Origin: Terriglobia bacterium | GTDB lineage: Bacteria > Acidobacteriota > Terriglobia > Versatilivoradales > Versatilivoraceae | NCBI GenBank assembly: GCA_963665655.1 | Contig: OY762429.1 | Location: 112,492 to 176,491, forward strand | DNA length: 64,000 nt | Direction of reading: 5' to 3' | Made by a program: the position numbers and the translations under genes | Shown: one piece after another, positions 8,491 to 52,113 of the stretch | How positions within the stretch are numbered: the stretch's first letter is position 1 | Layout: every line of letters begins with the position of its first letter | The notes under the pieces: model-generated | Seen by the model: only the letters and a program-made list of their open reading frames with translations | Told to the model about the DNA's origin: nothing | Databases searched by the model: none

Positions 8491-11400
8491 TTGCTTCCGG
8501 TGAGCACGCACATCAGAAGACACTATTGCGCCTTGCTCCTTCTGCTCGCCGCGATCCTGCCGGCAGCCTCTGCCCAGGATTCCCCGGCCGAGGGGAGCGC
8601 CTCGCCGCTTTTCCATGTCTCCTTCGAGAGGAGAGTACTGGCCGACCAGGCTGAGGGAGACGCCGCTCCCCTGGGCAACCGGGGAGTGAGCATTGCCAGG
8701 CGCGGCCGGCAGGGAAGAGCCCTTTTTCTGGATTGGGGAGCCCTGCTCAGCTTTGCCGCAGCCGGCAACGTCTACCCCGAACAGGGAACGCTGTCCTTTT
8801 GGTGGCAACTGGACGAGCCCCCCGGCAAGACTCCCTTTTCCATCATTCGAATCAGCACCCGGCAGCTTCATTCCCCCCAACACCTCTTCGCTCACCTCTT
8901 CTGGACAGGCCGGACCCTGGCATTGCGGCTCTACGACCGGGACTCCCAAGTCCTGGAGACGGATGCCGGAATCGATTCCGGCGTCGTTGCCGGTCGCTGG
9001 ATCTTTTTGGCCTTTACCTGGCATGAGCTGGAAGGACTGCGCTTTTACATGGACGGCCGGGAAGTCGGCAACCGCCTCGGGCAATTTCATTTTGGCAGGT
9101 GGCTGGACCAGATCGGCATTCACACCCAGGCGCTGACCCCCTATTACCGGAAGAGCAACGAGAGACGGGCCTATGTGGACGAATTCCGGATTTTTGCGGA
9201 AGCCTTGAGTCCCCCAGCGATTGCAAACCTGTCCGAGCTCGGCGCCGGTCGTGCCGGCCGGCACCCTTCGGCAAAGAAGGTCGACGAGGAATTGCGTTCC
9301 GGCCACTGGGCCGACCGTTTCGGGTGGAACAATCCGGAGGCCACCCTGGCGCTGGCCGCCCCGATCTCCATTCGCCCGGTAAGAATCGTGTCCGCCCGGG
9401 ACGTCAAGCGGGCCTCGCCGGCAGCCGCGGATGGTTTCTCCGAGAGCTCGTGGCCCCCGGCGATGAAGGGATACCCACAAGAGGGAAGGACCCTGCGGCT
9501 CGAGGTCCCGCGGGAGGCCTTCAACCGCCTTAGCCTGCGGGGCAATCTGAAAGGGAAGATCCATGGAAGCGACGGAAGCCGGCGGCGGTTGCTTTGGGAC
9601 CTTGCTTCGGAAAGGGCGAGTGAGACCGCCAAACCTCTGAACGGACCCTTGTCCATGTCCCGGATCGAAGTGGAAAGAGAGTCCGGGCAGCTTCGAGAAC
9701 TCTCGCTGCTGTCGACCCGGGACGCCCCTGAGAACGGGACCGAAAGCGCCGAAAGCGGATGGCTGACCCTTCGACTGCTGCCCGTGGAACTGGCGGCCAG
9801 CCTTCCGGGCCAATCCGCCCGCCAGGTCAGATCCTTCTTCGGGCGGCGAACCGATCTGCGTACGGCCTATCTTTCCCGGGATCGGGAGGCCTGGGTGGCT
9901 GTCCCCGAAGAAAGCTATCAGGCGCCGTCCGCCCCGCTGCAAACACCCGCCACCCAAGGCTTTCGACACATTTTTCTGCCCCCCTTCCTGAGCCACACGG
10001 TTGTGAAGGCCATCCGTATCCGTCTGGACGGGGCCGGGCAGGACACCTCGGTGGAGTCCAGGGTGCGATGGACGGTCAAGGACCCCATCCTTCCCCAGCG
10101 GGATGTGGTTTCCCTGGATTTCCGATGGTCGGGGGAAGAGTCGGCCGAAATGGAGCTCGATCTCGGCGATTGCTTTCTCCCCGCCGGACAGCCCCTCTGG
10201 ATGACCGTTGCCAGTGACCGAATCGACTTTGCCCGAAAGCATTTCGAGAATGCGGAGATCGAGATGCGCACCGTGACAGAGTGGCGACTGCCCGGCAAGC
10301 AAGCCCAGCCTGCCGACCTGTTTGCCGACCGCACCCTGTTGATCCGCCAGGGCCTGCGCAAGCTGACCCGACGATTGGACTGGATGTCCATGGACCTTGC
10401 CTCGGCCCGCCGGAATTTCAGCAGCGTTGACGAGACCTTCCGGTTGGTGGAAGGGTTGTTGCAATCCCGACCCAGGGATCCAATGGGACTATCCTTCAAG
10501 GGACTGCTCCAGCCCGATTCGATCCCTCCCGAATATCGGGAGAAACCTCCCTCGGCCCCCGCATTCCCCCAATGGGCCGTCCAACAGAAGCGGCTGGTGG
10601 ACCACTTCCGGCACATTGCCCACTGGTGGATAGAAAACCGGCAACTCCAGAGCGGCGCCTTCGGGGGCGGACTTCGGGGCGACACCCGGCTGGCTGCCCA
10701 CTGGCCGGGGATAGCACTCATGGATGGTCCGGCTCCCCGGCTCAAGCAATCCCTGGTCTCCCTGATCGAAGCCCGTTTGCGCGACGGGACTCTGGAAATG
10801 GGTTTGAACCGCCAGGTCCGGCCCGTCCGACAGGCCTATCAGGCCGGCCTGAACCTGGCTCCGATGCTGGCCCTGCTGGATTACGGCAACCCCCGCTGGA
10901 TCGAAACGCTGATGGAGACCTCCCGTCACCTGGATCGCCTCACCGCCGCCAACCCTGCGGGTCACCGCCACTTTCAATCCTCGCGGGTCAGCGCTACGGA
11001 ATCGGTCCGGCAGGGAATCTTCGCCCGGGAAGAGGCCTGGAGCTCTCTCCTGTGGCACTCGGCCCTCACGCTGGCCGATTACAATCGCAACCCAACGCTG
11101 GTGGATCAGTTGAAGGAGTATGCCGCGGCCCGGCTGGAGCACTGGAAGAAGGACCGCTATCCGAAACTGACCCTGGCCATCCATTTTCCTACCGACGAGG
11201 CCCTGAGCCGAGGACTGCCCGGTCGTCCTTTGTTGGACCTGATGTGGGGAGTCTTCCGGGTGACCGGCAACCCGGCATACCTGTGGACCTTGAGCACACT
11301 GGTGAAGGCCGGCCATACGGAGGCCGCCCAGACAAGCTCGGCGCGCTGGCAATCGTTCTTGCCGGAGGCTGCCGAGGTCCGTCCCTTTCTGAAGCTGCTC

Positions 11401-12492: not shown

Positions 12493-12874
12493 GAGCCTTT
12501 GGCAAAATTCCGCAGACAAGGGTATTGTGGATCGGGAGAGGGGACACGGAGTGATAGGGGCAGGTTGGCTCTGTGCCTGAATGGCCACAAAAGGCACAAA
12601 AGCTGGAATCGCCAAGTCTCAAATCTCATTCAGGAATCAGGATTTCCAGAACGCGGTTCTCCGTCGAAAGGCCACAAAAGGCACAAAAACGGGATTGGGC
12701 AAGACTGGGGCCTGATTTTGTGCCTTTTGTGCTTTTTGTGGTTGAGCCGTTCACCCCATTCACTTGGCAGCGGCAGCCTTCCCAGGAGAAGCCAGGGGAG
12801 AGGTGACTCGCGGGGCAAGTCCGCTCTTCTGTTGTTTTACGGAGATGCTCGATTCCGAATTTTGCAAAAGGCTC
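12493..12874 (+). repeat. Family A MITE-like element (copy A1), ~380 bp, 18-nt terminal inverted repeats GAGCCTTTGGCAAAATTC / GAATTTTGCAAAAGGCTC
   Basis: Carries four GGCCACAAAAGGCACAAAA-type boxes in both orientations. Full copy at 57394-57769 (inverted), internal fragment at 28396-28500. No transposase ORF. Confidence 0.7.
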
Positions 12875-12924
12875 TCTTGACTGATCCGTCAATGTTGTCC
12901 CGACCCAAGAGCTCTGAAAGGCCC

Positions 12925-13344
12925 ATGGAAGCCGGATACCTGATCCTTGACCACCCCGCCGACCTGGGGATCGAAGCTCGCGGCAAGACTCTGGCGGAGG
13001 CATTTGAACAGGGTGCTTACGGACTCGCCTCAGTGATTCTCGACCCGGCTTCCGTCCGGCCGGTGGAATCCATGCCGGTCAGGATCGAGGCGGGAGACCG
13101 CCAGCAACTTCTGGTCAGGTGGTTGACCGAGGTGCTCTACCTCTACGACGGATTGAAATTCGCCCCACGACACTTCAAGATTGAGCGGTCGTCGTCCCGT
13201 TTCCTGGAGGCGCAGGTTCGAGGAGAGCCGTTCGATCCCGGGCGCCATACCGTCCGGCTGGACGTCAAGGCGATCACCTACCACCAGCTCGTGATCCGCA
13301 GGCGCGGGTCGGGCTATTGGTTGCAGGTGTTCCTCGACATCTGA
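12925..13344 (+). CDS. Archease (RtcB cofactor family), 140 aa
   Basis: MEAGYLILDHPADLGIEARGKTLAEAFEQGAYGL...RLDVKAITYHQLVI matches archease-family conserved blocks. The ORF-track N-terminal extension (from 12499) is translated MITE repeat sequence and is rejected. Confidence 0.7.
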   Translation: MEAGYLILDHPADLGIEARGKTLAEAFEQGAYGLASVILDPASVRPVESMPVRIEAGDRQQLLVRWLTEVLYLYDGLKFAPRHFKIERSSSRFLEAQVRGEPFDPGRHTVRLDVKAITYHQLVIRRRGSGYWLQVFLDI

Positions 13345-13435: not shown

Positions 13436-13894
13436 TTGACCGTGCGCATTACCTTTCTGTGCCGGCGCTGCTATCGAGAATGCCATGCTCGGCCGCAGGA
13501 GAAGAGTGCCCCCCCGGTCTGCCGATCCTGCGGCTCCGTGCAGCCCCTGCGGTTCACCCGGGAGCACCTCGAGGGGAACCGCGTCGACCGCTGCGCGGTC
13601 TGCGGCCAGGAGGACTTTTACGTGCGGGAGGAGCCACGGAAGTTGATGGGCCTGGTCTATCTGCTGCTGGGGCTGGGATTGGCTTACTGGACTTACGGGA
13701 TCAGCCTGGTTCCGGGCCTGCTGGGCTTTGACCGGTACTTCCGAAAGTATCCCAAGTTGACCATCTGCTACCATTGCTACGCGAAGTACCGGGACTGCCG
13801 CCCGTCCCCCGAGCACAAGGAATACGATTTGGCATTCGCCGAACGACTGGAAAAGGAAATCCGCAACGATCGGACCCTGCGCGATTTTTCCTGA
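13436..13894 (+). CDS. Cysteine-rich zinc-ribbon membrane protein (hypothetical)
   Basis: Three CxxC pairs (CRRC, CRSC, CAVC) N-terminal of one predicted TM helix (LMGLVYLLLGLGLAYWTYGISLVPGLLGF), then a CYHCY...C cluster. TTG/GTG start. Confidence 0.45.
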   Translation: MTVRITFLCRRCYRECHARPQEKSAPPVCRSCGSVQPLRFTREHLEGNRVDRCAVCGQEDFYVREEPRKLMGLVYLLLGLGLAYWTYGISLVPGLLGFDRYFRKYPKLTICYHCYAKYRDCRPSPEHKEYDLAFAERLEKEIRNDRTLRDFS

Positions 13895-13923
13895 ATGATG
13901 AACCGTTTTCCGGAAGACCGATC

Positions 13924-14145
13924 GTGACCGTCTTGTTGGAGCTCATTCGAATCTGCTGGACCTTCCGCGACCGGCGCTGGTATCGCCGCTATCCCTTTCT
14001 GCCGATCCCGCCCAGCGACTACCTTCGATGGCGAATGGAGACGAACTACGGAGACCAGAGCCTCAGCAACCTGAAATGGAAGGACATCTCGGCCTACGCC
14101 CGCTGGCGCCGGGAACTGCGGTTGCGCGGTCACGACGGGGAATGA
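13924..14145 (+). CDS. Small Arg/Trp-rich hypothetical ORF (74 aa, GTG start)
   Basis: In-frame GTG 30 nt after the preceding stop. Protein VTVLLELIRICWTFRDRRWYRRYPF.... No homology recognised; may be spurious. Confidence 0.25.
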   Translation: MTVLLELIRICWTFRDRRWYRRYPFLPIPPSDYLRWRMETNYGDQSLSNLKWKDISAYARWRRELRLRGHDGE

Positions 14146-14165
14146 TCAAACGTTAAGGGAGAACG

Positions 14166-14345
14166 TTAGTCGATGGGGTCGGGTAGATCGAGACGGTGAT
14201 TCCGAGCCTCCCAGGCCTCGACCAGTGTCACCAGAACATCCAGGCGGTCGCCTTCGGGCGTGTTGCGCTCGGCCGTCATCAGGCCCTCGATTTCCTCGAG
14301 GGTGCGGCGATAGTCCCGTTCGGTCTTGATCGGTACGATTTCCAT
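14166..14345 (-). pseudogene. HigA-like antitoxin N-terminal domain only (59 aa); C-terminal HTH missing, probable remnant
   Basis: MEIVPIKTERDYRRTLEEIEGLMTAERNTPEGDRLDVLVTLVEAWEARNHRLDLPDPID matches the conserved N-terminal block of COG5499/HigA-family antitoxins. Stop follows immediately. No HigB-like partner found. Confidence 0.4.
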
Positions 14346-14626
14346 GACCCGGTCCTCAAATCGTTTGCGCGTCAATGGCTTCGTACATTCGGTGCGTTCC
14401 GATGAATTGCGCCAGTTTTGTTCGTGAAGTTCCCACCGATTCCCTTCTATCTGGCCGCGCCTGCGCTCCATACAAGGGGACGACTCTTGCCGGATGAAGC
14501 GGGGGTGGATCCAAGGAGGGCGGGCCTGCATTGCCTCCAGTCAGGATCGGCGTTATACTGGTTTTTCCACGTGAGCACAGCTCTCATCGCTTGCCGGGTA
14601 TGCGCCCGGCGGCAGGTTGAAGTCCC

Positions 14627-15673
14627 ATGACCGACGACGCCTTGCAAACCTATCATCTCCTCCGGGACAAGCTGCACGACGTCCTGCCCGATTTCGAAAT
14701 CCGGGCCAAGGCCGAATTGGCCTGCCGCATCAACCAGTTGAAGAGCGACCTGGGCGCCGTGATCCTGGGGCACAACTACATGGAGCCCGGGCTGTACCAT
14801 TCAGTGCCCGATTTCACCGGAGACTCCCTGGAGTTGAGCCGCCTGGCCGCCACCGCCGACGGCGATCCCATCGTTTTCTGCGGAGTCCGCTTCATGGCGG
14901 AGACCGCCAAGATCCTGAGCCCGGAGAAGACGGTGCTGATCCCCTCGCTGGAGGCGGGCTGTTCCCTGGCAGCCAGCATCACCGCCGAGGATGTCCGGGA
15001 GCTGCGCGAGCGTTTTCCAGGCGTTCCGGTGGTGACCTACGTCAACACCTACGCCGACATCAAGGCCGAAAGCGACGTCTGCTGCACTTCCAGCAACGCC
15101 CTGGCGGTCATTGAATCGTTCAAGACCGAGACCGTCATCTTTCTTCCCGACGAATACCTGGCCAGAAACGTGGCTCGCGAAAGCGGCAAACACATCATTT
15201 TTCCCACCGACAGGCCCATTCCCAGGGAAAAGCAGGATCCTCACATGGACTACCAGATCCTCGGCTGGCACGGCAAGTGCGAGGTTCACGAGAAGTTCAA
15301 CGTGGAGGATATCGAGAACGTGCGCCGGCAGTTTCCCGACGTGGTGGTGCTGGCTCACCCCGAGTGCAGCCCGGAAGTGGTCGAGGCAGCCGATTTTTCG
15401 GGAAGCACCTCGGCCATGATTCGCTTTGTGGAACAGGCTCGGTCCCCCCGCTATCTCCTGCTGACCGAATGCAGCATGGCAGACAACGTCTCGGCCGAAA
15501 ACCCCGACAAGGAAATGCTCCGCTTGTGCAGTGTTCGCTGCCCCCACATGAATCAGATCACCCTGCAGGATACCCTCGATTCACTCCTCCAGAACCGATA
15601 TGTGGTGGATGTCCCGGAGGAAATCCGTCTGAAAGCCAAGCGGGCGGTGGACCGGATGCTGGAGATCCATTGA
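14627..15673 (+). CDS. nadA: Quinolinate synthase A
   Basis: Full-length NadA signature with conserved cysteines (FCGVRFMAETAKIL, TSSNA, VLAHPEC). Confidence 0.9.
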   Translation: MTDDALQTYHLLRDKLHDVLPDFEIRAKAELACRINQLKSDLGAVILGHNYMEPGLYHSVPDFTGDSLELSRLAATADGDPIVFCGVRFMAETAKILSPEKTVLIPSLEAGCSLAASITAEDVRELRERFPGVPVVTYVNTYADIKAESDVCCTSSNALAVIESFKTETVIFLPDEYLARNVARESGKHIIFPTDRPIPREKQDPHMDYQILGWHGKCEVHEKFNVEDIENVRRQFPDVVVLAHPECSPEVVEAADFSGSTSAMIRFVEQARSPRYLLLTECSMADNVSAENPDKEMLRLCSVRCPHMNQITLQDTLDSLLQNRYVVDVPEEIRLKAKRAVDRMLEIH

Positions 15674-41594: not shown

Positions 41595-42977
<1,383 letters not shown>

Positions 42978-43021: not shown

Positions 43022-45838
43022 TCATGATTCTTTGGCTGCTCGGGCAAGCGCCCGCAGGATTTCGTCGAGGACCGAATCCAGCCTTGGGCCCAGATCTTCG
43101 GCCAAGAACCTCAACACCACATATCCATGTTCCTGCAGCAGGGCATCCTTGCGACGGTCTCGCCGGTACGCTTCACGGTCTCCCAGGTGTTGCGACCCAT
43201 CCAGTTCGATCACCAGTCGTGAAGCCGGGTCCAGAAAGTCGACCTCCATGTGGCCTTCCTGACAAAACGGAATCGGCAATTGGGCGTTCAACCGGAATCG
43301 ATCTCTGGTTTCGGGCAGGCTTTGCAGGCGGCGCAACAGGAAGGCTTCGCTGGCGCTGCGCACGCGCGGGGTGTCTGGCTCGGCCGAGGGTAACGGAGCG
43401 GTGATGGTGCTGAAGAGTTCGGCGAGGGGTTCGTCAACTCCATCGCGTAGCAGACGCCGCACGCTTGCCGCATACTGGTGTTTCCAATGCCCACCGGCGG
43501 GAAGCTGGACGCTGGCAGGCCAGCCGGGAGCAGCACTGGCAGGCAGCGAAATGGAATAGCCGGCTGCCTCGTAGGCGCGACAGCGTCGGTCGAACATGCG
43601 CGACAGCATCGGAACATCGAGATCAGCGTAGTCGTAGACGCGGACCTCACGCTTGTGTTCGTGAGGACGATGCAGACGTCCGACGTACTGGGAGATGGTT
43701 CCGCGCCAGGACACGGGCATGGTGAGGAACAAGCTATCGAGCCGCGGGTTGTCGAACCCCTCCCCAATGAGCCGGCCCGTGGCCAGCAATACCCGCCCCG
43801 GGACCGACTCGGCAGCCCGAGCCAGAGCGGATTTGAGCGCCCTGTTTCCCATCCCACCTTGCAGACATACAACGTCGAGACCTTTGGCCTGGAGCCCTCC
43901 GGCAAGGGTCTGCAAGTGGTTGACTCGTTCCGTTAATACCAGTGGCGCACGGCCGTTTTGGACGTTCTCGACAACATCGGAGCAGATCGCCAGATTCCGG
44001 CTGTCGTCCCTTATCAACTGATCGCAAACGCGTTGGAACTCGATGCGTGCGTCGCCTTCCGGCTCGCCTTGCATTCGGAATGAGGTTGGTCGGGCCAGCA
44101 CGTCGTGGGAAAAGGGCCTTTTTGCAGCCTGACATTTGGCATCCACGCGGTGCCGTACGGGACCGCACTGCATGAACACAATCGGCTGGTGGCCATCCTT
44201 TCGCACCACGGTTGCCGAAAGTCCAGTGAGGTACTTGGCTTTTGCGCGGCTGACCGCCAGTTCGAAGCTGAAAGCGGGGACATGATGACATTCATCGACA
44301 ATCACGTATCCGTAATCGGCAATACGGTCGTCGACCACGCCTTTTCTGGTCAAGCTCTGAATCAGGGCAACATCGATCTTGCCAGTGAGTTTCTTGCGGC
44401 CACCCCCCAAACGCCCAATATCGCTTTCTGCGAGGTCAAGTAATTCGCCCAATCGGGTGACCCATTGTTCCAACAGTTGTTTTCGATGAACGAGAATCAG
44501 CGTGTTGACGCCTCGTTGAGCGATCAGCCACGCGGCCAGGACCGTTTTTCCGAACGCGGTCGTGGCCGCCAAGACTCCGGTGTCATGGGCCAGCATGGCG
44601 TTCGCTGCCGTCTCCTGCTCAGGGCGCAGGATGCCTTGGAAGGACACCGCAAGGCGTAAACCTGGGTAGCGTCGGTCCTGAATCGAAAGCTCGATCCCAA
44701 AACCGCGGAGAAGCGCTTCCACCTCTTCCAGACAGCCCCGAGGAAGCTCAATGAATCCAGCTCCATCCTCTGCGCAGGCCACGATCCTCGGCTTGCCGTA
44801 GGTTGGCAACCGCATGGCCTGAGCACGATAAAACTCTGGATTCTGGAACGCCGCCAGCCGCAACAGGCGTGTGACGATGCTCGGAGGCAAATCCGCTTTG
44901 GGGATGTAGACTCGGTCAGCGAGTACGATCTCCAAATTGTCGGGAACCGGTGCGGTTACGGACGGTTCAATGAGCCTACGGGACGGCGGTGCGTTCCACG
45001 GCGCGGCGGCAAACAGATCGTCATCGAGAGTGACGGTCCTGACGCCCAACACGCGCCCTTTCTTCTCCGCTGATTCGACCAGGGACTCCGCCTGCTTTGA
45101 AGTGATTCGGCCGAGTTGCGAAAGATGTGCCCACTGATCGGCAAACGGATTCAAGTCCGCATCGACAAATACGCTATTGCCGGCCTTCCGTGGCTCGCGC
45201 TGCAGCGGCAAAGCGATCAAGTTGCCGAATCCGGCACGTGGCAACGTATCTTGACTCGGAAAGAAACGGTCGTAAGAGCGAAAGCCGAGATCGGGCCGGT
45301 CATCCATGGCTTCAGTGAGAAGCATCGCCCCCAAACGGCGCGCCAAACCTGCCGGTACAGCCTCGTCGAAGAACAGCCAAATGTGTCCGCCGTTTCCCGA
45401 CCTCGAACGTTCGAGCGTGGCGGGGACTCCCCGCCTGGCACAGATTTCCAGATAGGCTGCTACGTCATCACTCCATCGCTCGCCGTCAAAGTCTACCGCC
45501 AGAAAGCGACAGCTTTCGTCGAGCAACATGGGATAGACGCCCATGGTGAACGCCTTGCCGTTATCGTCTGCGCCAGACAGGTGCCAGCGCACGACCTGGT
45601 CGGTGACCGGGAGGAACTGCCGGTTGTGACAGTCAGCGCACTTGATCTTCGGCTTTTCGCACACACCCGGTCGCCACTCGTTGGAACATGCTGGCGCATA
45701 ACCCGACCTACCGGATGTCAAGCTCTCGAATCGGCGCGGATAGATGTCCTCACGTCCCCGAAACAGCGAGCGAAACAGGGCGATCTTGCTTGCGGCGCTG
45801 GAGCGGCGACTGACAAGAGCGACGTCGTTCATGGTCAT
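43022..45838 (-). CDS. 938-aa fusion: AEP/PrimPol-like N-terminal domain + SF2 DEAH-box helicase + C-terminal DUF559 (Vsr-like PD-(D/E)xK) nuclease domain
   Basis: N-terminus has AEP motifs I (FLAVDFDGE), II (SRSGNGGHIWLFFD), III-like (RAGFGNLIALP). Helicase has Walker A (TAFGKTVLAAW) and DEAH box (VIVDECHH). C-terminus has a DUF559 signature (VDFLDPASRLVIELDGSQHL...RRDRRKDALLQEHGYVVLRF). Starts 16 nt after the lptFG stop. Confidence 0.8.
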   Translation of the reverse strand: MTMNDVALVSRRSSAASKIALFRSLFRGREDIYPRRFESLTSGRSGYAPACSNEWRPGVCEKPKIKCADCHNRQFLPVTDQVVRWHLSGADDNGKAFTMGVYPMLLDESCRFLAVDFDGERWSDDVAAYLEICARRGVPATLERSRSGNGGHIWLFFDEAVPAGLARRLGAMLLTEAMDDRPDLGFRSYDRFFPSQDTLPRAGFGNLIALPLQREPRKAGNSVFVDADLNPFADQWAHLSQLGRITSKQAESLVESAEKKGRVLGVRTVTLDDDLFAAAPWNAPPSRRLIEPSVTAPVPDNLEIVLADRVYIPKADLPPSIVTRLLRLAAFQNPEFYRAQAMRLPTYGKPRIVACAEDGAGFIELPRGCLEEVEALLRGFGIELSIQDRRYPGLRLAVSFQGILRPEQETAANAMLAHDTGVLAATTAFGKTVLAAWLIAQRGVNTLILVHRKQLLEQWVTRLGELLDLAESDIGRLGGGRKKLTGKIDVALIQSLTRKGVVDDRIADYGYVIVDECHHVPAFSFELAVSRAKAKYLTGLSATVVRKDGHQPIVFMQCGPVRHRVDAKCQAAKRPFSHDVLARPTSFRMQGEPEGDARIEFQRVCDQLIRDDSRNLAICSDVVENVQNGRAPLVLTERVNHLQTLAGGLQAKGLDVVCLQGGMGNRALKSALARAAESVPGRVLLATGRLIGEGFDNPRLDSLFLTMPVSWRGTISQYVGRLHRPHEHKREVRVYDYADLDVPMLSRMFDRRCRAYEAAGYSISLPASAAPGWPASVQLPAGGHWKHQYAASVRRLLRDGVDEPLAELFSTITAPLPSAEPDTPRVRSASEAFLLRRLQSLPETRDRFRLNAQLPIPFCQEGHMEVDFLDPASRLVIELDGSQHLGDREAYRRDRRKDALLQEHGYVVLRFLAEDLGPRLDSVLDEILRALARAAKES

Positions 45839-45853
45839 GACCAGGTGTCCAGC

Positions 45854-48196
45854 CTACGTCCGAACGTTAAATAGCAGATAGACGCCTCCGGCCCCGAAAA
45901 CCAGGTTGGGAGCCCAGGCGGCCAATAGCGGCTCCAGCTTGCCCGCGCTCCCGATCTGCTCGAAGAACCCCTGCAAAACCCAGTAGCTGATTCCGACCAC
46001 GATGCTGAGTCCGATGCCGTAGAGCGAACCTCGCCGGCCCGTCGAAAAAGCAAAGGGAATCGCAATCATGGCCATGGTCAAACTCACCAGCGGAAAGGAC
46101 AGCTTGCTGTGCCGGGCTACCTTCAGCCGCACCACGTCGAACCCGCTCCGACTCAAATCGTCAATGGTGCTCCCCAATTCCCAATAGCTCATTTTGGACG
46201 ACTGACGCACTTCCTTCTTGAAGTAGTCGGGTCGCTCTCCAATGGACCCGATCAGTTCGCGGTCGATCGCCAGAAACTGGGCCTGCCGGGGCCGGTCGTG
46301 GCTGAAACCCTGAGCCCAGCCCTCCTCGAATACCCATCCGGATCGATTCCGGTCCCACGACGCTTTCTCGGCAAAGACCATCCGGGTCACCGCAAGCGTC
46401 CGCGGATCGAAGTCAAACACCGAAATCCGATTGAAGACGTTCTGCTCGTCGTCAAAATAGTTGTAGTGGAAGATGCGGTTTCGTTCGCCCATCATCCACT
46501 TGCGGGTGGGGCGTTTGGTCTGAGGATTGCGCCCCTTGATGACACGCCTCAAGTCGTCCTGCTTCTGGTTGGCGGAGGGGAGGATGTATTCCTGCAGCAT
46601 GAAGGAGCCGGTGCTCAACAAGAGTGCGGTCACCAGTACCGGGAAAGACAGTCGATAAAGACTGATTCCGGAGGACTTCATGGCCACGATCTGCGAGGTT
46701 CGGGTCAGGAGGCTGAAGCTCACCAGCGCGGCTACCAGGACGCTGAACGGGATCATCTGCACCAGGATATGCGGAATCAGGTATAGAAAGTAATCGAACA
46801 CGACCCAGCCGGAAATGCCTTGCCCGACGATGTCGCTGAGCAGTTCAAAGAAGGTAAACAGCACGAAGAGCACGATGAAGGCGGAAAGCACCAGGACGAA
46901 GAACTTCAGGAAGCCGCTGAGGATGTACTTGTCCAGCGTCCATCCGGCAGGGAAGCGCAAGATTCCGCCCCTCGGGGCCCGGTGGCTCCGGACGGGAGCA
47001 TCGGACCTGATGGCGTTCTTGTGAAGTCTCCCGGCTGCGCTCCAGAGAGCGTTGACCAGAGGACGAAACAGCCTCCCCCAGGAAAACTGTCTCTCCGAGG
47101 TCAGCAAGAGAAACAGTCCCAACGCCAGAAACACCAGGTTCGCCAGCCAGGGACCCAGGAAGGCCGGGATATGACCGCTTTCGGCAAAGGCCAGACCCTG
47201 GGAAAACAGAATGAAATAGACCAGGAAGATGATCAGGCTGATGACGAATCCGAAGGACTTGCCGCTCCTCCTGGTGACAACGCCCAGAGGAAGCCCGAGA
47301 ATGGCAAACACAAAGACGGCCAGAGGAAGCGCCAGTCGACGATTGAGCTCAATGACCGCCTTTCTGCGGTGGAGGTCGCTGCCGGTCGAGGCCTCGGAGA
47401 AAGCCTCGCCGTGGAGCTCGAGCGTGTCCATCTCGGCAATGGTCTTGTCCTTGGGAGCACCCGCGGAGGCACCCATGGCCTTGACAAGGGGAACCGTAGC
47501 CTGTTCAAAGGAAGTGACCCGCACGGTGCCTTCTTTTCCCGGCACCACCTCGTAAGTCGCACCCCGTTGAAGGTTGAGCTGCAGCTCACGCCGGCCCAGG
47601 TGGTTGATCAATCCACCCTGGCGGGAAAAGGTGGTCTTGGGCCAGTTGGCCCCGGTGACCTCGGCAAGGAAAATACCTTTCCAGGAGCGCCGGTCGGGGG
47701 CTGCATCCATGACGTAGACCACCCGACCGGGAAACCGCTCTTCGAAAACGCCTCTCCGGACCACGGTGTTGAGCGACTTGAGCGCAACTTCATCCTTGAT
47801 CAGTGTCAAGCGGTGAGTGGCTCTGGGAGACCACAAGTTGGAATTCAACAGGGCCAGCGTGCCCACCACCGCCGAAAAGACCAGAACCGGCCACAGCAGA
47901 TTTCTGAGACCGATTCCGGAAGATCGCATGGCGGTAATTTCACTGTCGGCCGAAAGGCGCCCGAAACAGATCAGAATGCCCAACAGGACCGACATGGGAA
48001 TGGAAAAGGTCAGCACCTTGGGCAGGATGCACAGGAAGAGCAAACCGGCCTCCTGCAAGGTGATGTTCTCTTGAACCAGGGTCTCCATCAGCCGACTGGA
48101 CACTTCGTTGGTCAGCAGGACAGCGCTGAATACCAGGGTGCCCAGACCGAAGGAGCCGATGATTTCCAGCAATATCGACTGTCGGAGAATTCTCAT
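45854..48196 (-). CDS. Fused LptF-LptG lipopolysaccharide export permease (two YjgP/YjgQ domains in one ~780-aa polypeptide)
   Basis: Two consecutive permease modules (MRILRQSILLEIIGSF... and LDKYILSGFLKFFVLVL...), each ~6 TM, in one uninterrupted ORF. ATG at 48196. Confidence 0.8.
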   Translation of the reverse strand: MRILRQSILLEIIGSFGLGTLVFSAVLLTNEVSSRLMETLVQENITLQEAGLLFLCILPKVLTFSIPMSVLLGILICFGRLSADSEITAMRSSGIGLRNLLWPVLVFSAVVGTLALLNSNLWSPRATHRLTLIKDEVALKSLNTVVRRGVFEERFPGRVVYVMDAAPDRRSWKGIFLAEVTGANWPKTTFSRQGGLINHLGRRELQLNLQRGATYEVVPGKEGTVRVTSFEQATVPLVKAMGASAGAPKDKTIAEMDTLELHGEAFSEASTGSDLHRRKAVIELNRRLALPLAVFVFAILGLPLGVVTRRSGKSFGFVISLIIFLVYFILFSQGLAFAESGHIPAFLGPWLANLVFLALGLFLLLTSERQFSWGRLFRPLVNALWSAAGRLHKNAIRSDAPVRSHRAPRGGILRFPAGWTLDKYILSGFLKFFVLVLSAFIVLFVLFTFFELLSDIVGQGISGWVVFDYFLYLIPHILVQMIPFSVLVAALVSFSLLTRTSQIVAMKSSGISLYRLSFPVLVTALLLSTGSFMLQEYILPSANQKQDDLRRVIKGRNPQTKRPTRKWMMGERNRIFHYNYFDDEQNVFNRISVFDFDPRTLAVTRMVFAEKASWDRNRSGWVFEEGWAQGFSHDRPRQAQFLAIDRELIGSIGERPDYFKKEVRQSSKMSYWELGSTIDDLSRSGFDVVRLKVARHSKLSFPLVSLTMAMIAIPFAFSTGRRGSLYGIGLSIVVGISYWVLQGFFEQIGSAGKLEPLLAAWAPNLVFGAGGVYLLFNVRT

Positions 48197-48549
48197 TGGG
48201 GACCGCCGGCCATTGATTTCATTCTCATCGGCATGCCTGCCAGGTTCCTTTACCCGCCACCATGCCCATTTTAGCCGCATTTCTCACCAGCTCGCCGGTG
48301 GCATGATGAAAACCTGTTGATCCGCGACGGGGAACCGAGGAGCACCCAACCGACCCGCAGATTCGCGTGGCTTATTTTAAAGTTTACATAATATACCTTA
48401 TCGGAAGTCGAGTTCGGACCGCTGGGATCGCCCCTGCTTCCGGACGCCTGTCTCTCGGCCGCGGCAAATTGGTTGCAACCGTTCCACTGGGACTCGATAT
48501 ATAATGGCCACCCGGTCGGGATTCATTGGAACATGGAGACAGCCAAAGC

Positions 48550-50955: not shown

Positions 50956-51105
50956 CATGGATGGACAGGATGCACAGGATAACCAGGACGGGACGCTGCT
51001 GCACGAGAAGCCGGCTCCGGCAATGATCGTGTGCGGACCTGCGGATGCTCAGGATTACAAGCTGGCCGTTTCAAGAAAAAATCCTGTGCATCCTGTGCAT
51101 CCATG
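50956..51105 (+). repeat. Family B palindromic MITE-like element, copy B2
   Basis: CATGGATGGACAGGATGCACAGGATAACCAGGACGGGACGCTGCTGCACGAGAAG...ATCCTGTGCATCCTGTGCATCCATG. Flanked on both sides by solo family-A TIRs (50918-50943, 51148-51166). Confidence 0.65.
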
Positions 51106-51204
51106 TGAATCAAAACCTGTTCCGAGCGTCCATAAAACCGTTGGCTTTGGAATTTTGCAAAAGGCTCACTGTGATAGCCTATTCAACCGATCGCTGTATG
51201 AGGG

Positions 51205-52113
51205 GTGGAAATGGAGACCAGAAGACTGGGCAAAACCGACATGGAGGTCAGTATCCTCGGTTTCGGGGGCGCCGAGATCGGCCTGGAGGGTCCGGGGGCT
51301 TCCTTGAATACGGTGACACGCCTGCTCAATGCCGCGTTGGACGAAGGATTGAACCTGATCGATACCGGCGAGTGCTACGGAGCCAGCGAGGAGCTGATCG
51401 GACGGGCCGTTTCGGGACGCCGCCGGGACTACTTCCTGTTCACCAAGTGCGGCCATCCGGAGGGAATGCCGGGAGAAGACTGGCGGCCGGATTCGCTGCT
51501 CGGCAGCATCCAGCGCAGCCTGCGGCGACTGCGGACCGACTGCCTGGACCTGATCCAACTGCACACGTGTTCAGAAGACGAACTGCTCAAGGGAACGGTC
51601 ATCGATACCTTGCAGCGTGCACGCGAGCGGGGCTATTGCCGCTACATCGGTTACAGCGGCGACAGCCGGGCGGCCTATTACGCGGTGCAATGCCAAGCCT
51701 TCGATTGCTTGCAGACTTCCATCAGCATTGCCGATCAGGAAGCGATGGATCTGGCCCTTCCCCTGGCCCTTGAACAGCACCTCGGCGTGATCGCCAAGCG
51801 GCCTCTGGCCAATGCTGCCTGGAGAACCGGTCGGAAGCCGGTGAATTCCTATCACCACACCTACTGGGATCGCCTCCAGCGGTTGGACTATCCCTTTATC
51901 AAGGATGAGCTGCAGACTTCGATTTCGACGGCGCTGCGCTTCACCTTGAGCGCCCCCGGCGTGCACACGGCCATCGTGGGTACGCTGACGCCCGGGAGGT
52001 GGAGGCAGAACGCCACCCTGCTCGAAGCCGGTCCCCTGCCCTCCCGTCAATTCGATGCCATCCGCCAGCGTTGGAGCGAAGTGGCGGAAGCAACCTGGAT
52101 CGGACAGACCTGA
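51205..52113 (+). CDS. Aldo/keto reductase
   Basis: LGFGGAEIG, DTGECYG and other AKR-family blocks. Confidence 0.85.
   Translation: MEMETRRLGKTDMEVSILGFGGAEIGLEGPGASLNTVTRLLNAALDEGLNLIDTGECYGASEELIGRAVSGRRRDYFLFTKCGHPEGMPGEDWRPDSLLGSIQRSLRRLRTDCLDLIQLHTCSEDELLKGTVIDTLQRARERGYCRYIGYSGDSRAAYYAVQCQAFDCLQTSISIADQEAMDLALPLALEQHLGVIAKRPLANAAWRTGRKPVNSYHHTYWDRLQRLDYPFIKDELQTSISTALRFTLSAPGVHTAIVGTLTPGRWRQNATLLEAGPLPSRQFDAIRQRWSEVAEATWIGQT

Follow-up and report, generated by a model that had tools for sequence, protein, structure and literature searches.

An orphan primase-polymerase, XPB-like helicase, and DUF559 nuclease fusion in a Terriglobia genome, with a possible role in genetic conflict

CRISPR-associated primase-polymerases (CAPPs) are DNA primases and strand-displacing polymerases that bind Cas1 and Cas2 and are implicated in adaptation, according to the part of the report by Zabrady et al. 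that was available to us (Zabrady et al. 2021, PMC8211822). The same part divides CAPP_A into TPR, RT, and Helicase types, states that the helicase form is the most prevalent among non-CRISPR homologues and that non-CRISPR homologues typically lie in mobile elements, and describes biochemical work on the TPR-fused Marinitoga enzyme (MpCAPP) and on the class-B DbCAPP, which has no fused domain. Here, we analyze a relative of these enzymes in a Terriglobia bacterium. Its gene lies on contig OY762429.1 (GenBank assembly GCA_963665655.1), within a 64,000-nucleotide stretch of DNA whose whole length we refer to as the window, and it combines an archaeo-eukaryotic primase (AEP) domain of the PrimPol kind, an XPB-like helicase, and a DUF559 nuclease in one polypeptide. 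On balance, we think that the protein is probably an orphan CAPP_A/AEP-TOTE enzyme that would unwind, nick, and copy DNA, with a role in genetic conflict or defense.

Helicases joined to Vsr-type nucleases belong to the same background. The original prediction made from this DNA mentioned helicase and Vsr combinations among defense genes, by which it presumably meant Hhe, reportedly described in 2020 by Gao and colleagues as a helicase-plus-Vsr defense protein. ARMADA YprA-Vsr helicases have been shown experimentally to protect against phages (PMC12458937). On the primase-polymerase side, antiphage defense by DRT7 (UG10) requires the DxD motif of its CAPP-like PrimPol domain; the partner of this domain is a reverse transcriptase with alpha-repeat domains, and the product of DRT7 is protein-primed poly(A)/poly(T) DNA (bioRxiv 10.64898/2026.04.18.719102). 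Given that the DRT7 PrimPol is catalytically required, there is a precedent for a PrimPol as a working part of an immune system.

The gene is an open reading frame (ORF) at 43022..45838 of the window, on the minus strand, which runs from an ATG to a stop codon inside this range and encodes 938 aa, the position and length given in the original prediction; all features of the gene described below are on the same strand. A public protein collection contains a 938-aa protein that is 100% identical to it. We assigned the whole gene as a fusion of PrimPol, XPB-like helicase, and DUF559 nuclease from the ORF list and from Pfam, NCBIfam, and PADLOC scans. The strings on which the prediction had relied (DFDGE, SGNGGHIWLFF, RAGFGNL, GKT, DECH, VDFLD, IELDGSQH, and VLRF) are all found in the translation, and the Pfam scan matched AEP-TOTE, ResIII/DEAD helicase, and DUF559, each far beyond chance. 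Statements about residue conservation refer to an alignment of 52 homologues with 63 to 91% identity.

The AEP/PrimPol catalytic domain is of the CAPP_A ("AEP-TOTE") type and occupies residues 18 to 252 (45083..45787). It matches PF22548 at E 1.6e-93 and 313 bits, against a cutoff of 27, over profile positions 2 to 229 of 230; motifs and fold agree with this match, and the N-terminal AEP assignment of the original prediction holds. The only solved relatives of the domain found by sequence are Marinitoga CAPP structures (7NQD, 7NQF, 7P9J, and 7QAZ; E 4e-8), and its fold is nearest to that of the solved CAPP PrimPol domain. Using published definitions of AEP motifs I to III (PMC10345425), we placed motif I at D116-F-D118 (hhhDhD; 45485..45493), which is invariant and aligned to DID of CAPP, and motif II at S147-G-N-G-G-H152 (sxH; 45383..45400), where S147, G148, and H152 are invariant and the segment is aligned to GNrGYH of CAPP. 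Motif III is Y189-D190 (hD; 45269..45274), within an invariant S188, Y189, D190, R191 run; it is aligned to vE of CAPP, the surrounding sequence being SYDRFFPSQ here and vEIFPKQ in CAPP. The prediction had thus identified motifs I and II correctly but had taken RAGFGNL for motif III. By alignment with 7NQD, RAGFGNL belongs instead to a further conserved loop in common with CAPP, GFGNLIALPL here and GLGNLIKVPL in CAPP, within the clade-specific segment RAGFGNLIALPL (45203..45238; G203, G205, L207, I208, A209, P211, and L212 invariant). The N-terminal part of the domain, before motif I, also contains an invariant Cys4 cluster (C51-x8-C60-x6-C67-x2-C70; 45629..45688), a putative zinc ribbon that we infer to bind zinc. 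The predicted local confidence (pLDDT) of the AlphaFold2 models falls below 50 at this cluster, as is expected for a metal site.

The center of the protein is a superfamily 2 (SF2) helicase, as predicted, which can now be refined to an XPB-like one. The helicase/translocase core consists of two RecA-like domains at residues 404 to 740 (43619..44629), and its Pfam matches are ResIII at residues 404 to 545 (E 1.4e-17), DEAD (E 1.7e-08), and a weak Helicase_C. Both by structure and by sequence, the best matches of this core are XPB/Rad25 proteins (XPBII, E 5.9e-14). It is preceded at residues ~299 to 392 (44663..44944) by a domain that resembles the N-terminal damage-recognition domain (DRD; MutS-like fold) of XPB. 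The SF2 motifs I, II, III, and VI (GKT, DECH, SAT, and QxxGRxxR) are invariant, corresponding for motif I to Walker A G430-K431-T432 (44543..44551), for motif II to Walker B D515-E-C-H518 (44285..44296), and for motif VI to Q717-YVGRLH-R724 (43667..43690), in which Q717, G720, R721, and R724 are the invariant positions. Just after motif III, R546-K-D548 (44195..44203) has invariant R546 and D548 and a K547 conserved in at least 90%; judging from position and sequence, it may be the equivalent of the XPB RED motif, with K for E. Because the protein scores 71 bits with the NCBIfam XPB equivalog model, whose cutoff is 610, we regard the helicase as XPB-like rather than as an XPB orthologue.

The C-terminal domain is a DUF559 nuclease of the Vsr-like PD-(D/E)xK group, again in agreement with the prediction (residues 848 to 931, 43046..43297; Pfam E 3.2e-12, 46.7 bits against a cutoff of 20.6). 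It also matches an "endonuclease-like protein" of known structure (3HRL; E 4.5e-06), to which the VDF, E.DG.QH, and LRF segments are aligned. The candidate active-site residues are E865/D867, E878-x-D880, and H884, and E865, E878, D880, and H884 are invariant. Because the catalytic residues of all three enzymes are invariant in the 52 homologues, all three activities appear to be under selection. The AlphaFold2 models have a moderate overall pLDDT of 73 to 76, which rises to 84 to 93 in the DUF559 region.

The original prediction considered the added primase-polymerase module unusual, and on this point we disagree with it: the architecture is already catalogued and abundant, with the same fusion in thousands of proteins. 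A word-indexed protein search returned at least 8,000 homologues. The best 120 of these are 63 to 100% identical, and 117 of the 120 span the full length and have all three Pfam domains; three are shorter and lack DUF559. Their source labels are "DEAD/DEAH box helicase family protein" or "SF2 helicase / very-short-patch-repair endonuclease." A dedicated Pfam model exists for the AEP domain, which also matches the PADLOC model "PrimPol, CAS-associated" at 2.9e-87, and a PrimPol with a helicase is, as mentioned above, the prevalent non-CRISPR form of CAPP homologues in the available part of PMC8211822. A search of one genome per species gave at least 595 relatives, of which the top 80 are 56 to 72% identical and come from Verrucomicrobiota, Planctomycetota, Acidobacteriota, Gammaproteobacteria, Myxococcota, Lentisphaerota, Riflebacteria, Saccharimonadales, and others. 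Every listed locus contains one match only, each on a different contig. The AEP domain alone matched 7,706 representatives of 50%-identity clusters (1,445 at E <= 1e-30). We classified the C-terminal module of the 39 near-full-length representatives among the top 150 and found no nuclease in 23, a PLD nuclease in 13, and DUF559 in 2, while 1 has a TraG-like P-loop instead of the helicase. This alternation of DUF559, PLD, and no nuclease indicates that the core of the family is the PrimPol and the XPB-like motor, with the nuclease as an exchangeable module. Literature searches found no paper on the combination of PrimPol, DUF559, and helicase or of AEP, SF2 helicase, and Vsr.

The genomic surroundings of relatives suggest a link of the family with genetic conflict. 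Our neighbor counts use crude ORF-based gene calls and are lower bounds. In the nearest outgroup clade (72 to 75% identity), four of the seven loci examined are in or beside type I-G CRISPR-Cas loci. Three of these (L081, L083, and L093) have the gene between the type I-G effector genes (Cas3, GSU0053, and GSU0054) and cas4-cas1 plus cas2, just upstream of cas4-cas1-cas2, and repeat arrays of 50 and 65 repeats accompany L081 and L083, respectively. In the fourth (L002), the same type I-G cas genes are 3 to 9 kb away. An operonic association with cas1/cas2 is therefore present in three loci and partly in L002, and it is absent in the window. The type I-G Cas proteins of L083 had no match in the loci searched apart from these four, which indicates that CRISPR linkage is an exception in the family.

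The same loci raise the explanation that the window protein is an orphan accessory of CRISPR adaptation, which would make double-stranded prespacers or fill gaps after integration in trans to a cas1-cas2 module elsewhere in the genome. Besides the placement of three relatives immediately upstream of cas4-cas1/cas2, the PADLOC "PrimPol, CAS-associated" match and the Cas1/Cas2 binding of CAPPs reported in the available part of PMC8211822 argue for it. However, the 64-kb window, which is the part of the source genome covered here, is free of cas genes and arrays, and the I-G linkage is limited to the four loci named above among those searched. We consider this explanation quite unlikely.

Further genes lie beside some of the relatives. 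L081 (13156-14235), L083 (12947-13984), and L084 (12941-13987), which belong to the 74 to 75% identical clade, encode a Pol-beta/NTP_transf_2 nucleotidyltransferase of ~345 to 360 aa on the same strand, ~100 nt (97 to 330 nt) downstream of the PrimPol-helicase-DUF559 gene. The three copies are 76 to 90% identical to each other. Neither the window nor the other loci searched have this gene, which may encode a partner particular to the clade or a fused MNT-HEPN-like module. In L093, the place between the gene and cas4-cas1 that the nucleotidyltransferase occupies in L081 and L083 is taken by an RVT_1 reverse transcriptase of 440 aa (13468-14790), which may stem from the insertion of a group II intron or be linked to adaptation. 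In L082 (7512-9854) and L091 (7462-9801), a divergent protein of ~780 aa with a weak 2OG-Fe(II) oxygenase match is encoded ~150 to 200 nt upstream of the homologue. The two loci are independent (68 and 72% identity clades), and the oxygenase-like protein could be a recurrent neighbor in a subclade.

The other three loci of the nearest clade (L084, L091, and L092) lie in islands where toxin-antitoxin pairs, DUF4143 ATPases, Mrr-like and PDDEXK genes, insertion sequence (IS) elements, and integrases abound, and L082 (68% identity) likewise lies in a toxin-antitoxin, defense, and integrase island. All-against-all clustering of the flanking ORFs of 80 loci gave no conserved partner gene in more than 7 loci; the largest neighbor family, SNF2 plus DUF3670, occurs in 7 of the 80. 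The 141 immediate neighbors of 84 loci represent 81 different Pfam families, the most frequent being AbiEii, DUF4143/AAA_14, ParE, Pol-beta nucleotidyltransferase, PIN, and IS200 transposase. About 10% of the immediate neighbors match PADLOC models (among the matches listed, PDC-S01 five times, AbiEii, type IIG restriction-modification, SoFic, PDC-S02, and AbiEi), a share that is suggestive only, since it has no matched background and depends on crude gene calls. Overall, co-occurrence with defense islands, which the original prediction had raised, is seen in the I-G and toxin-antitoxin/defense contexts of the nearest clade, but the neighbors in the window are housekeeping genes. Its suggestion of a defense-type protein consequently gains circumstantial support from those contexts, from the ~10% of neighbors matching PADLOC, and from the swappable nuclease.

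The lack of a fixed partner bears on the idea that the protein is an effector of a TOTE (TPR, OB, TBP, Effector) system and acts with TPR-cold-shock-domain and TBP-like partners. In its favor, the matching Pfam model is named "TOTE conflict system, AEP domain," and the solved CAPP was deposited as a TPR_REGION domain-containing protein. Yet no TPR, S1/CSD, or TBP gene lies beside the target or among the window ORFs scanned, and no such partner is among the recurring neighbors of the 84 homologous loci. The absence of TPR-CSD/TBP partners, here and in the 84 loci, largely refutes TOTE system membership at this locus, and we regard a TOTE effector role as extremely improbable.

Relatives of ~53% identity with the AEP, DRD, and helicase domains but no nuclease are encoded in 30 plasmid records and are frequent on alphaproteobacterial plasmids. 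Two of these nuclease-less homologues (L085, NZ_CP043619.1; L086, CP140946.1) are beside recombinases: their neighbors are a tyrosine-recombinase trio (RIT-like element), or TniQ directly before the gene together with VapBC and an integrase, near transfer genes. This suggests that the two plasmid homologues travel as cargo of recombinase- or transposon-type elements. Phage records match only the helicase part, none of them carries the AEP part, and the phage helicases are unrelated; a phage origin was rejected.

A further explanation is that the protein is a replication or establishment factor of a plasmid, integrative and conjugative element, or transposon, and that the window copy is a stranded remnant. 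ORF904 of pRN1, a primase-helicase, and the primases of conjugative plasmids are models for such a factor. The 30 plasmid records, with ~53% identical genes near tyrosine-recombinase trios or near TniQ, VapBC, integrase, and transfer genes, are consistent with it, as is the statement in the available part of PMC8211822 that non-CRISPR CAPP homologues are typically found in mobile elements. On the other side, neither an integrase nor repeats, origin-like features, or other genes of an element accompany the window copy, and the insertion consists of the ORF plus 59 nt; each listed locus holds one match, on different contigs; an SF2 XPB-like translocase with a Vsr-like nuclease is not the arrangement of a replicative helicase; the AEP part is absent from phage records; and the plasmid versions lack DUF559. 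We judge an element-replication role to be very unlikely.

The history of the locus can be read from related genomes. The closest one, a Ca. Versatilivorator sp. metagenome-assembled genome (L001, OZ241970.1; Acidobacteriota in the NCBI taxonomy), has a homologue that is 88% identical and the same gene order as the window, SDR-kefC-lptFG-X-ahcY-thiolase-fadB, where X is the gene studied here. Four other relatives have empty sites, in which lptFG stands directly beside ahcY and synteny is kept (L087 and L088, LptFG 77% identical; L089 and L090, 64%). Their lptFG-ahcY spacers are 960 or 160 nt long, and no remnant of the gene was detected in these empty sites (tblastn, best E ~4). The insertion comprises the ORF and 59 further nt. 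The ORF is not flanked by direct or inverted repeats of any significance, and no mobile-element ends were recognized. Rates of divergence likewise point to horizontal acquisition, given that the protein is ~60% identical in other phyla, whereas LptFG is ~37% identical in hits labeled Acidobacteria or Terriglobales. The gene was thus acquired horizontally, as a single gene between the 3' ends of lptFG and ahcY, in an acidobacterial lineage akin to Ca. Versatilivorator, and then kept in the genus. The uniform vertical conservation in a housekeeping context that the original prediction had named as a ground for its refutation is at odds with the empty sites, with the patchy ~60% identical homologues, and with the absence of a fixed partner.

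On the left, the insertion is bounded by the fused lptF-lptG gene (45854..48280, minus strand; two copies of Pfam LptF_LptG, E 3.3e-165), at whose stop codon the empty-site synteny ends. The spacer from this stop codon to the ATG of the gene is 15 nt long (45839..45853), not 16 nt as first given; the gene is directly downstream on the same strand, as the prediction had it. On the right, synteny resumes at the 3' end of ahcY (S-adenosylhomocysteine hydrolase, Pfam AdoHcyase; 41595..42977, plus strand), which is convergent with the gene, as predicted, and 44 nt from it. No promoter- or terminator-like site was found at the insertion junctions, and the gene is probably transcribed by read-through from lptFG. 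In L001, ~385 nt with an AT-rich promoter-like stretch precede the homologue (9614-10000), against the 15 nt in the window, so that transcription of the gene may not be the same in the two lineages. L001 also has a ~450-bp insertion between the gene and ahcY (12810-13300) whose ends are runs of inverted CACGAAT-type repeats, resembling a miniature inverted-repeat transposable element. The 960-nt lptFG-ahcY spacer of L087 (10347-11310) has similar CCACGAAGG repeats, and the window has neither element.

The genes of the window are all housekeeping genes (Tex, GroEL, glycine cleavage, PPDK, ComEC, beta-oxidation genes, ahcY, lptFG, and a kefC-like gene), and those within ~8 kb of the target belong to housekeeping families or have no Pfam match. 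The original prediction reported no integrase in the flanking ~3 kb, and there is none in the whole 64-kb window. The G+C fraction is uniform at ~0.60 across the window, with no compositional anomaly at the gene. The LptF-LptG fusion is 808 aa long and is common to hundreds of full-length homologues of ~770 to 800 aa, the named ones being labeled Acidobacteria or Terriglobia. The mechanically called ahcY ORF starts with GTG at 41595 and encodes 460 aa. Its orthologues have 424 aa, ~36 residues fewer, and identity in tblastn is seen from residue 33 onward, so the true start is probably downstream of 41595. The syntenic block has a second variable spot: a 242-aa ORF with no Pfam match lies between the kefC-like and SDR genes (51045-51773), has no counterpart in L001, where kefC adjoins SDR, and is replaced by an aldo-keto reductase in L087 and L089.

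Retention at one site also fits a different explanation, in which the protein works in DNA repair or damage tolerance and carries out both excision and resynthesis within one polypeptide, to the benefit of the host. The XPB-like motor and the DRD-like domain would find and open distorted DNA, DUF559 would incise it, and the PrimPol would refill the patch or re-prime a fork. The XPB-Bax1 pair and Vsr are precedents for the incision. XPB/Rad25 proteins are the best fold and sequence matches, and the protein has a DRD-like domain of the XPB type; two congeners retain the gene at one shared site, with intact active sites and in a housekeeping, operon-like position. Furthermore, an E. coli PrimPol-RT protein is reported to contribute to the response to oxidative damage and to defense, according to the available part of its report (PMC12439943). 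However, the family is spread patchily, with ~60% identity between phyla, and the sites of sister taxa are empty; its contexts are dominated by toxin-antitoxin, defense, CRISPR, and mobile genes and not by repair genes; a nuclease that is swapped for PLD or lost is typical of effector modules and not of a fixed repair chemistry; and the NCBIfam XPB score is far below its cutoff (71 against 610 bits). Given these data, we consider a repair role unlikely.

We therefore return to the orphan CAPP_A/AEP-TOTE enzyme with a conflict or defense role. In the proposed reaction, the XPB-like motor would load on duplex DNA and open it with ATP, and the DUF559 domain would nick or cut the opened DNA. The PrimPol would then prime de novo on the exposed single strand and extend with strand displacement, by analogy with the solved CAPP enzymes. 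The biological role, drawn from context, would be a conflict or defense function against invading DNA. In the CRISPR-embedded type I-G relatives beside cas4-cas1-cas2, the same chemistry could serve to make or process spacer precursors or to repair DNA after integration.

Several observations weigh against this interpretation. We infer every enzymatic activity, the order of the steps, and the biological role of the protein. The AlphaFold2 models are of moderate confidence, and their zinc-finger and GFGNL regions are disordered. The 64-kb window has no cas genes, CRISPR arrays, toxin-antitoxin pairs, or integrases, and the neighbors of the gene are purely housekeeping. PADLOC v2.0.0 has no system built on the protein, of which only the AEP part hits a cas-accessory model, and the share of PADLOC-matching neighbors is open to the reservations given above. 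We found no paper testing a PrimPol-SF2-DUF559 protein. Two congeners share the gene at one site, its composition is not anomalous, and it is seemingly operon-fused to lptFG, so a repair role that benefits the host fits these features equally well. Finally, large alphaproteobacterial plasmids commonly carry relatives that lack the nuclease, and these could act for the benefit of the plasmid.

A more specific proposal, which we put forward tentatively and think possible but doubtful, is that the protein and its ~60%-identical cassettes are self-sufficient, single-protein immune effectors whose killing or sensing depends on DNA synthesis. Once the motor had opened invader DNA and the nuclease had nicked it, strand-displacing synthesis by the PrimPol would start from inside the duplex. 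If this is correct, such synthesis could wreck the replication of the invader or yield double-stranded fragments that CRISPR adaptation modules capture, and the family would be a mobile link between innate restriction and spacer acquisition.

Whichever role applies, three conserved active sites in one fusion predict a coupled unwind, cut, and copy reaction, and we know of no such reaction described for a defense or repair enzyme. The locus is a natural experiment, with a single-gene cassette, mapped empty sites in sister taxa, and near relatives in type I-G loci, and the family is a tractable entry to prespacer production and to the contribution of DNA synthesis to immunity. For annotation, entries now labeled "DEAD/DEAH box helicase family protein" could be given more precise names. 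A specialist is unlikely to be surprised by the protein, which is nevertheless a good, testable candidate. New in this analysis are the XPB-like identity of the motor and the DRD-like domain that precedes it, the Cys4 insert, the nuclease as an exchangeable module, the repeated placement of the gene upstream of cas4-cas1-cas2 in type I-G loci, and the cleanly mapped single-gene insertion.

Compared with known systems, the protein resembles Hhe and ARMADA in joining an SF2 helicase and a C-terminal Vsr-type PD-(D/E)xK nuclease in one polypeptide, and it differs from them in that its helicase is XPB-like rather than YprA-like and in that Hhe and ARMADA are not known to carry a PrimPol. The PADLOC model for DpdF, of the YprA family, matches the DUF559 region only, and no Hhe model is among the PADLOC matches at E <= 0.1 (PADLOC v2 contains one); by PADLOC, the protein is unrelated to Hhe. 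It shares with SauUSI (7CLG) and with type I/ISP restriction motors the fusion of an SF2 double-stranded DNA translocase to a nuclease, along with weak sequence and fold similarity of the helicase. SauUSI carries a PLD nuclease, as do sister architectures of the family, whereas here the nuclease is DUF559, a PrimPol is added, and no target-recognition domain was identified. The likeness to XPB (Rad25) and XPB-Bax1 consists of the helicase match, the DRD-like domain, and a nuclease coupled to the helicase, and an R-K-D triplet stands where the RED motif would be expected; unlike in XPB-Bax1, the nuclease belongs to the same polypeptide, as a DUF559 domain, instead of being a separate Bax1 protein, and a PrimPol is fused as well.

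Among systems with the same type of AEP, TOTE conflict systems give their name to the Pfam family, but the TPR-OB and TBP partner genes that define these systems (Aravind, Iyer & Burroughs 2022, cited by PMC12458937) are absent here and in the homologous loci. DRT7 has the same AEP type with different partners, which here are an XPB-like motor and a nuclease, and the protein has no PADLOC DRT match. The CAPP_A "CAPP-Helicase" type is similar in that a PrimPol is followed by a helicase and in that the nearest outgroup clade of our protein lies inside type I-G loci. The window copy has no CRISPR-Cas neighborhood, and MpCAPP and DbCAPP, as described in the available part of PMC8211822, have no helicase, nuclease, or Cys4 insert. 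The NCBIfam model for CAPP type A1 (NF040561) has a cutoff of 200 bits, and the protein reaches 66. Having no cas association here and falling below that cutoff, it lies outside the CAPPs sensu stricto. The description of Zabrady et al., in the part available (PMC8211822), does not mention that the helicase is XPB-like, nor does it mention the DRD-like domain or the alternation of DUF559, PLD, and no nuclease. By hidden Markov model, motifs, and fold, the protein is a member of the AEP-TOTE/CAPP_A PrimPol subfamily.

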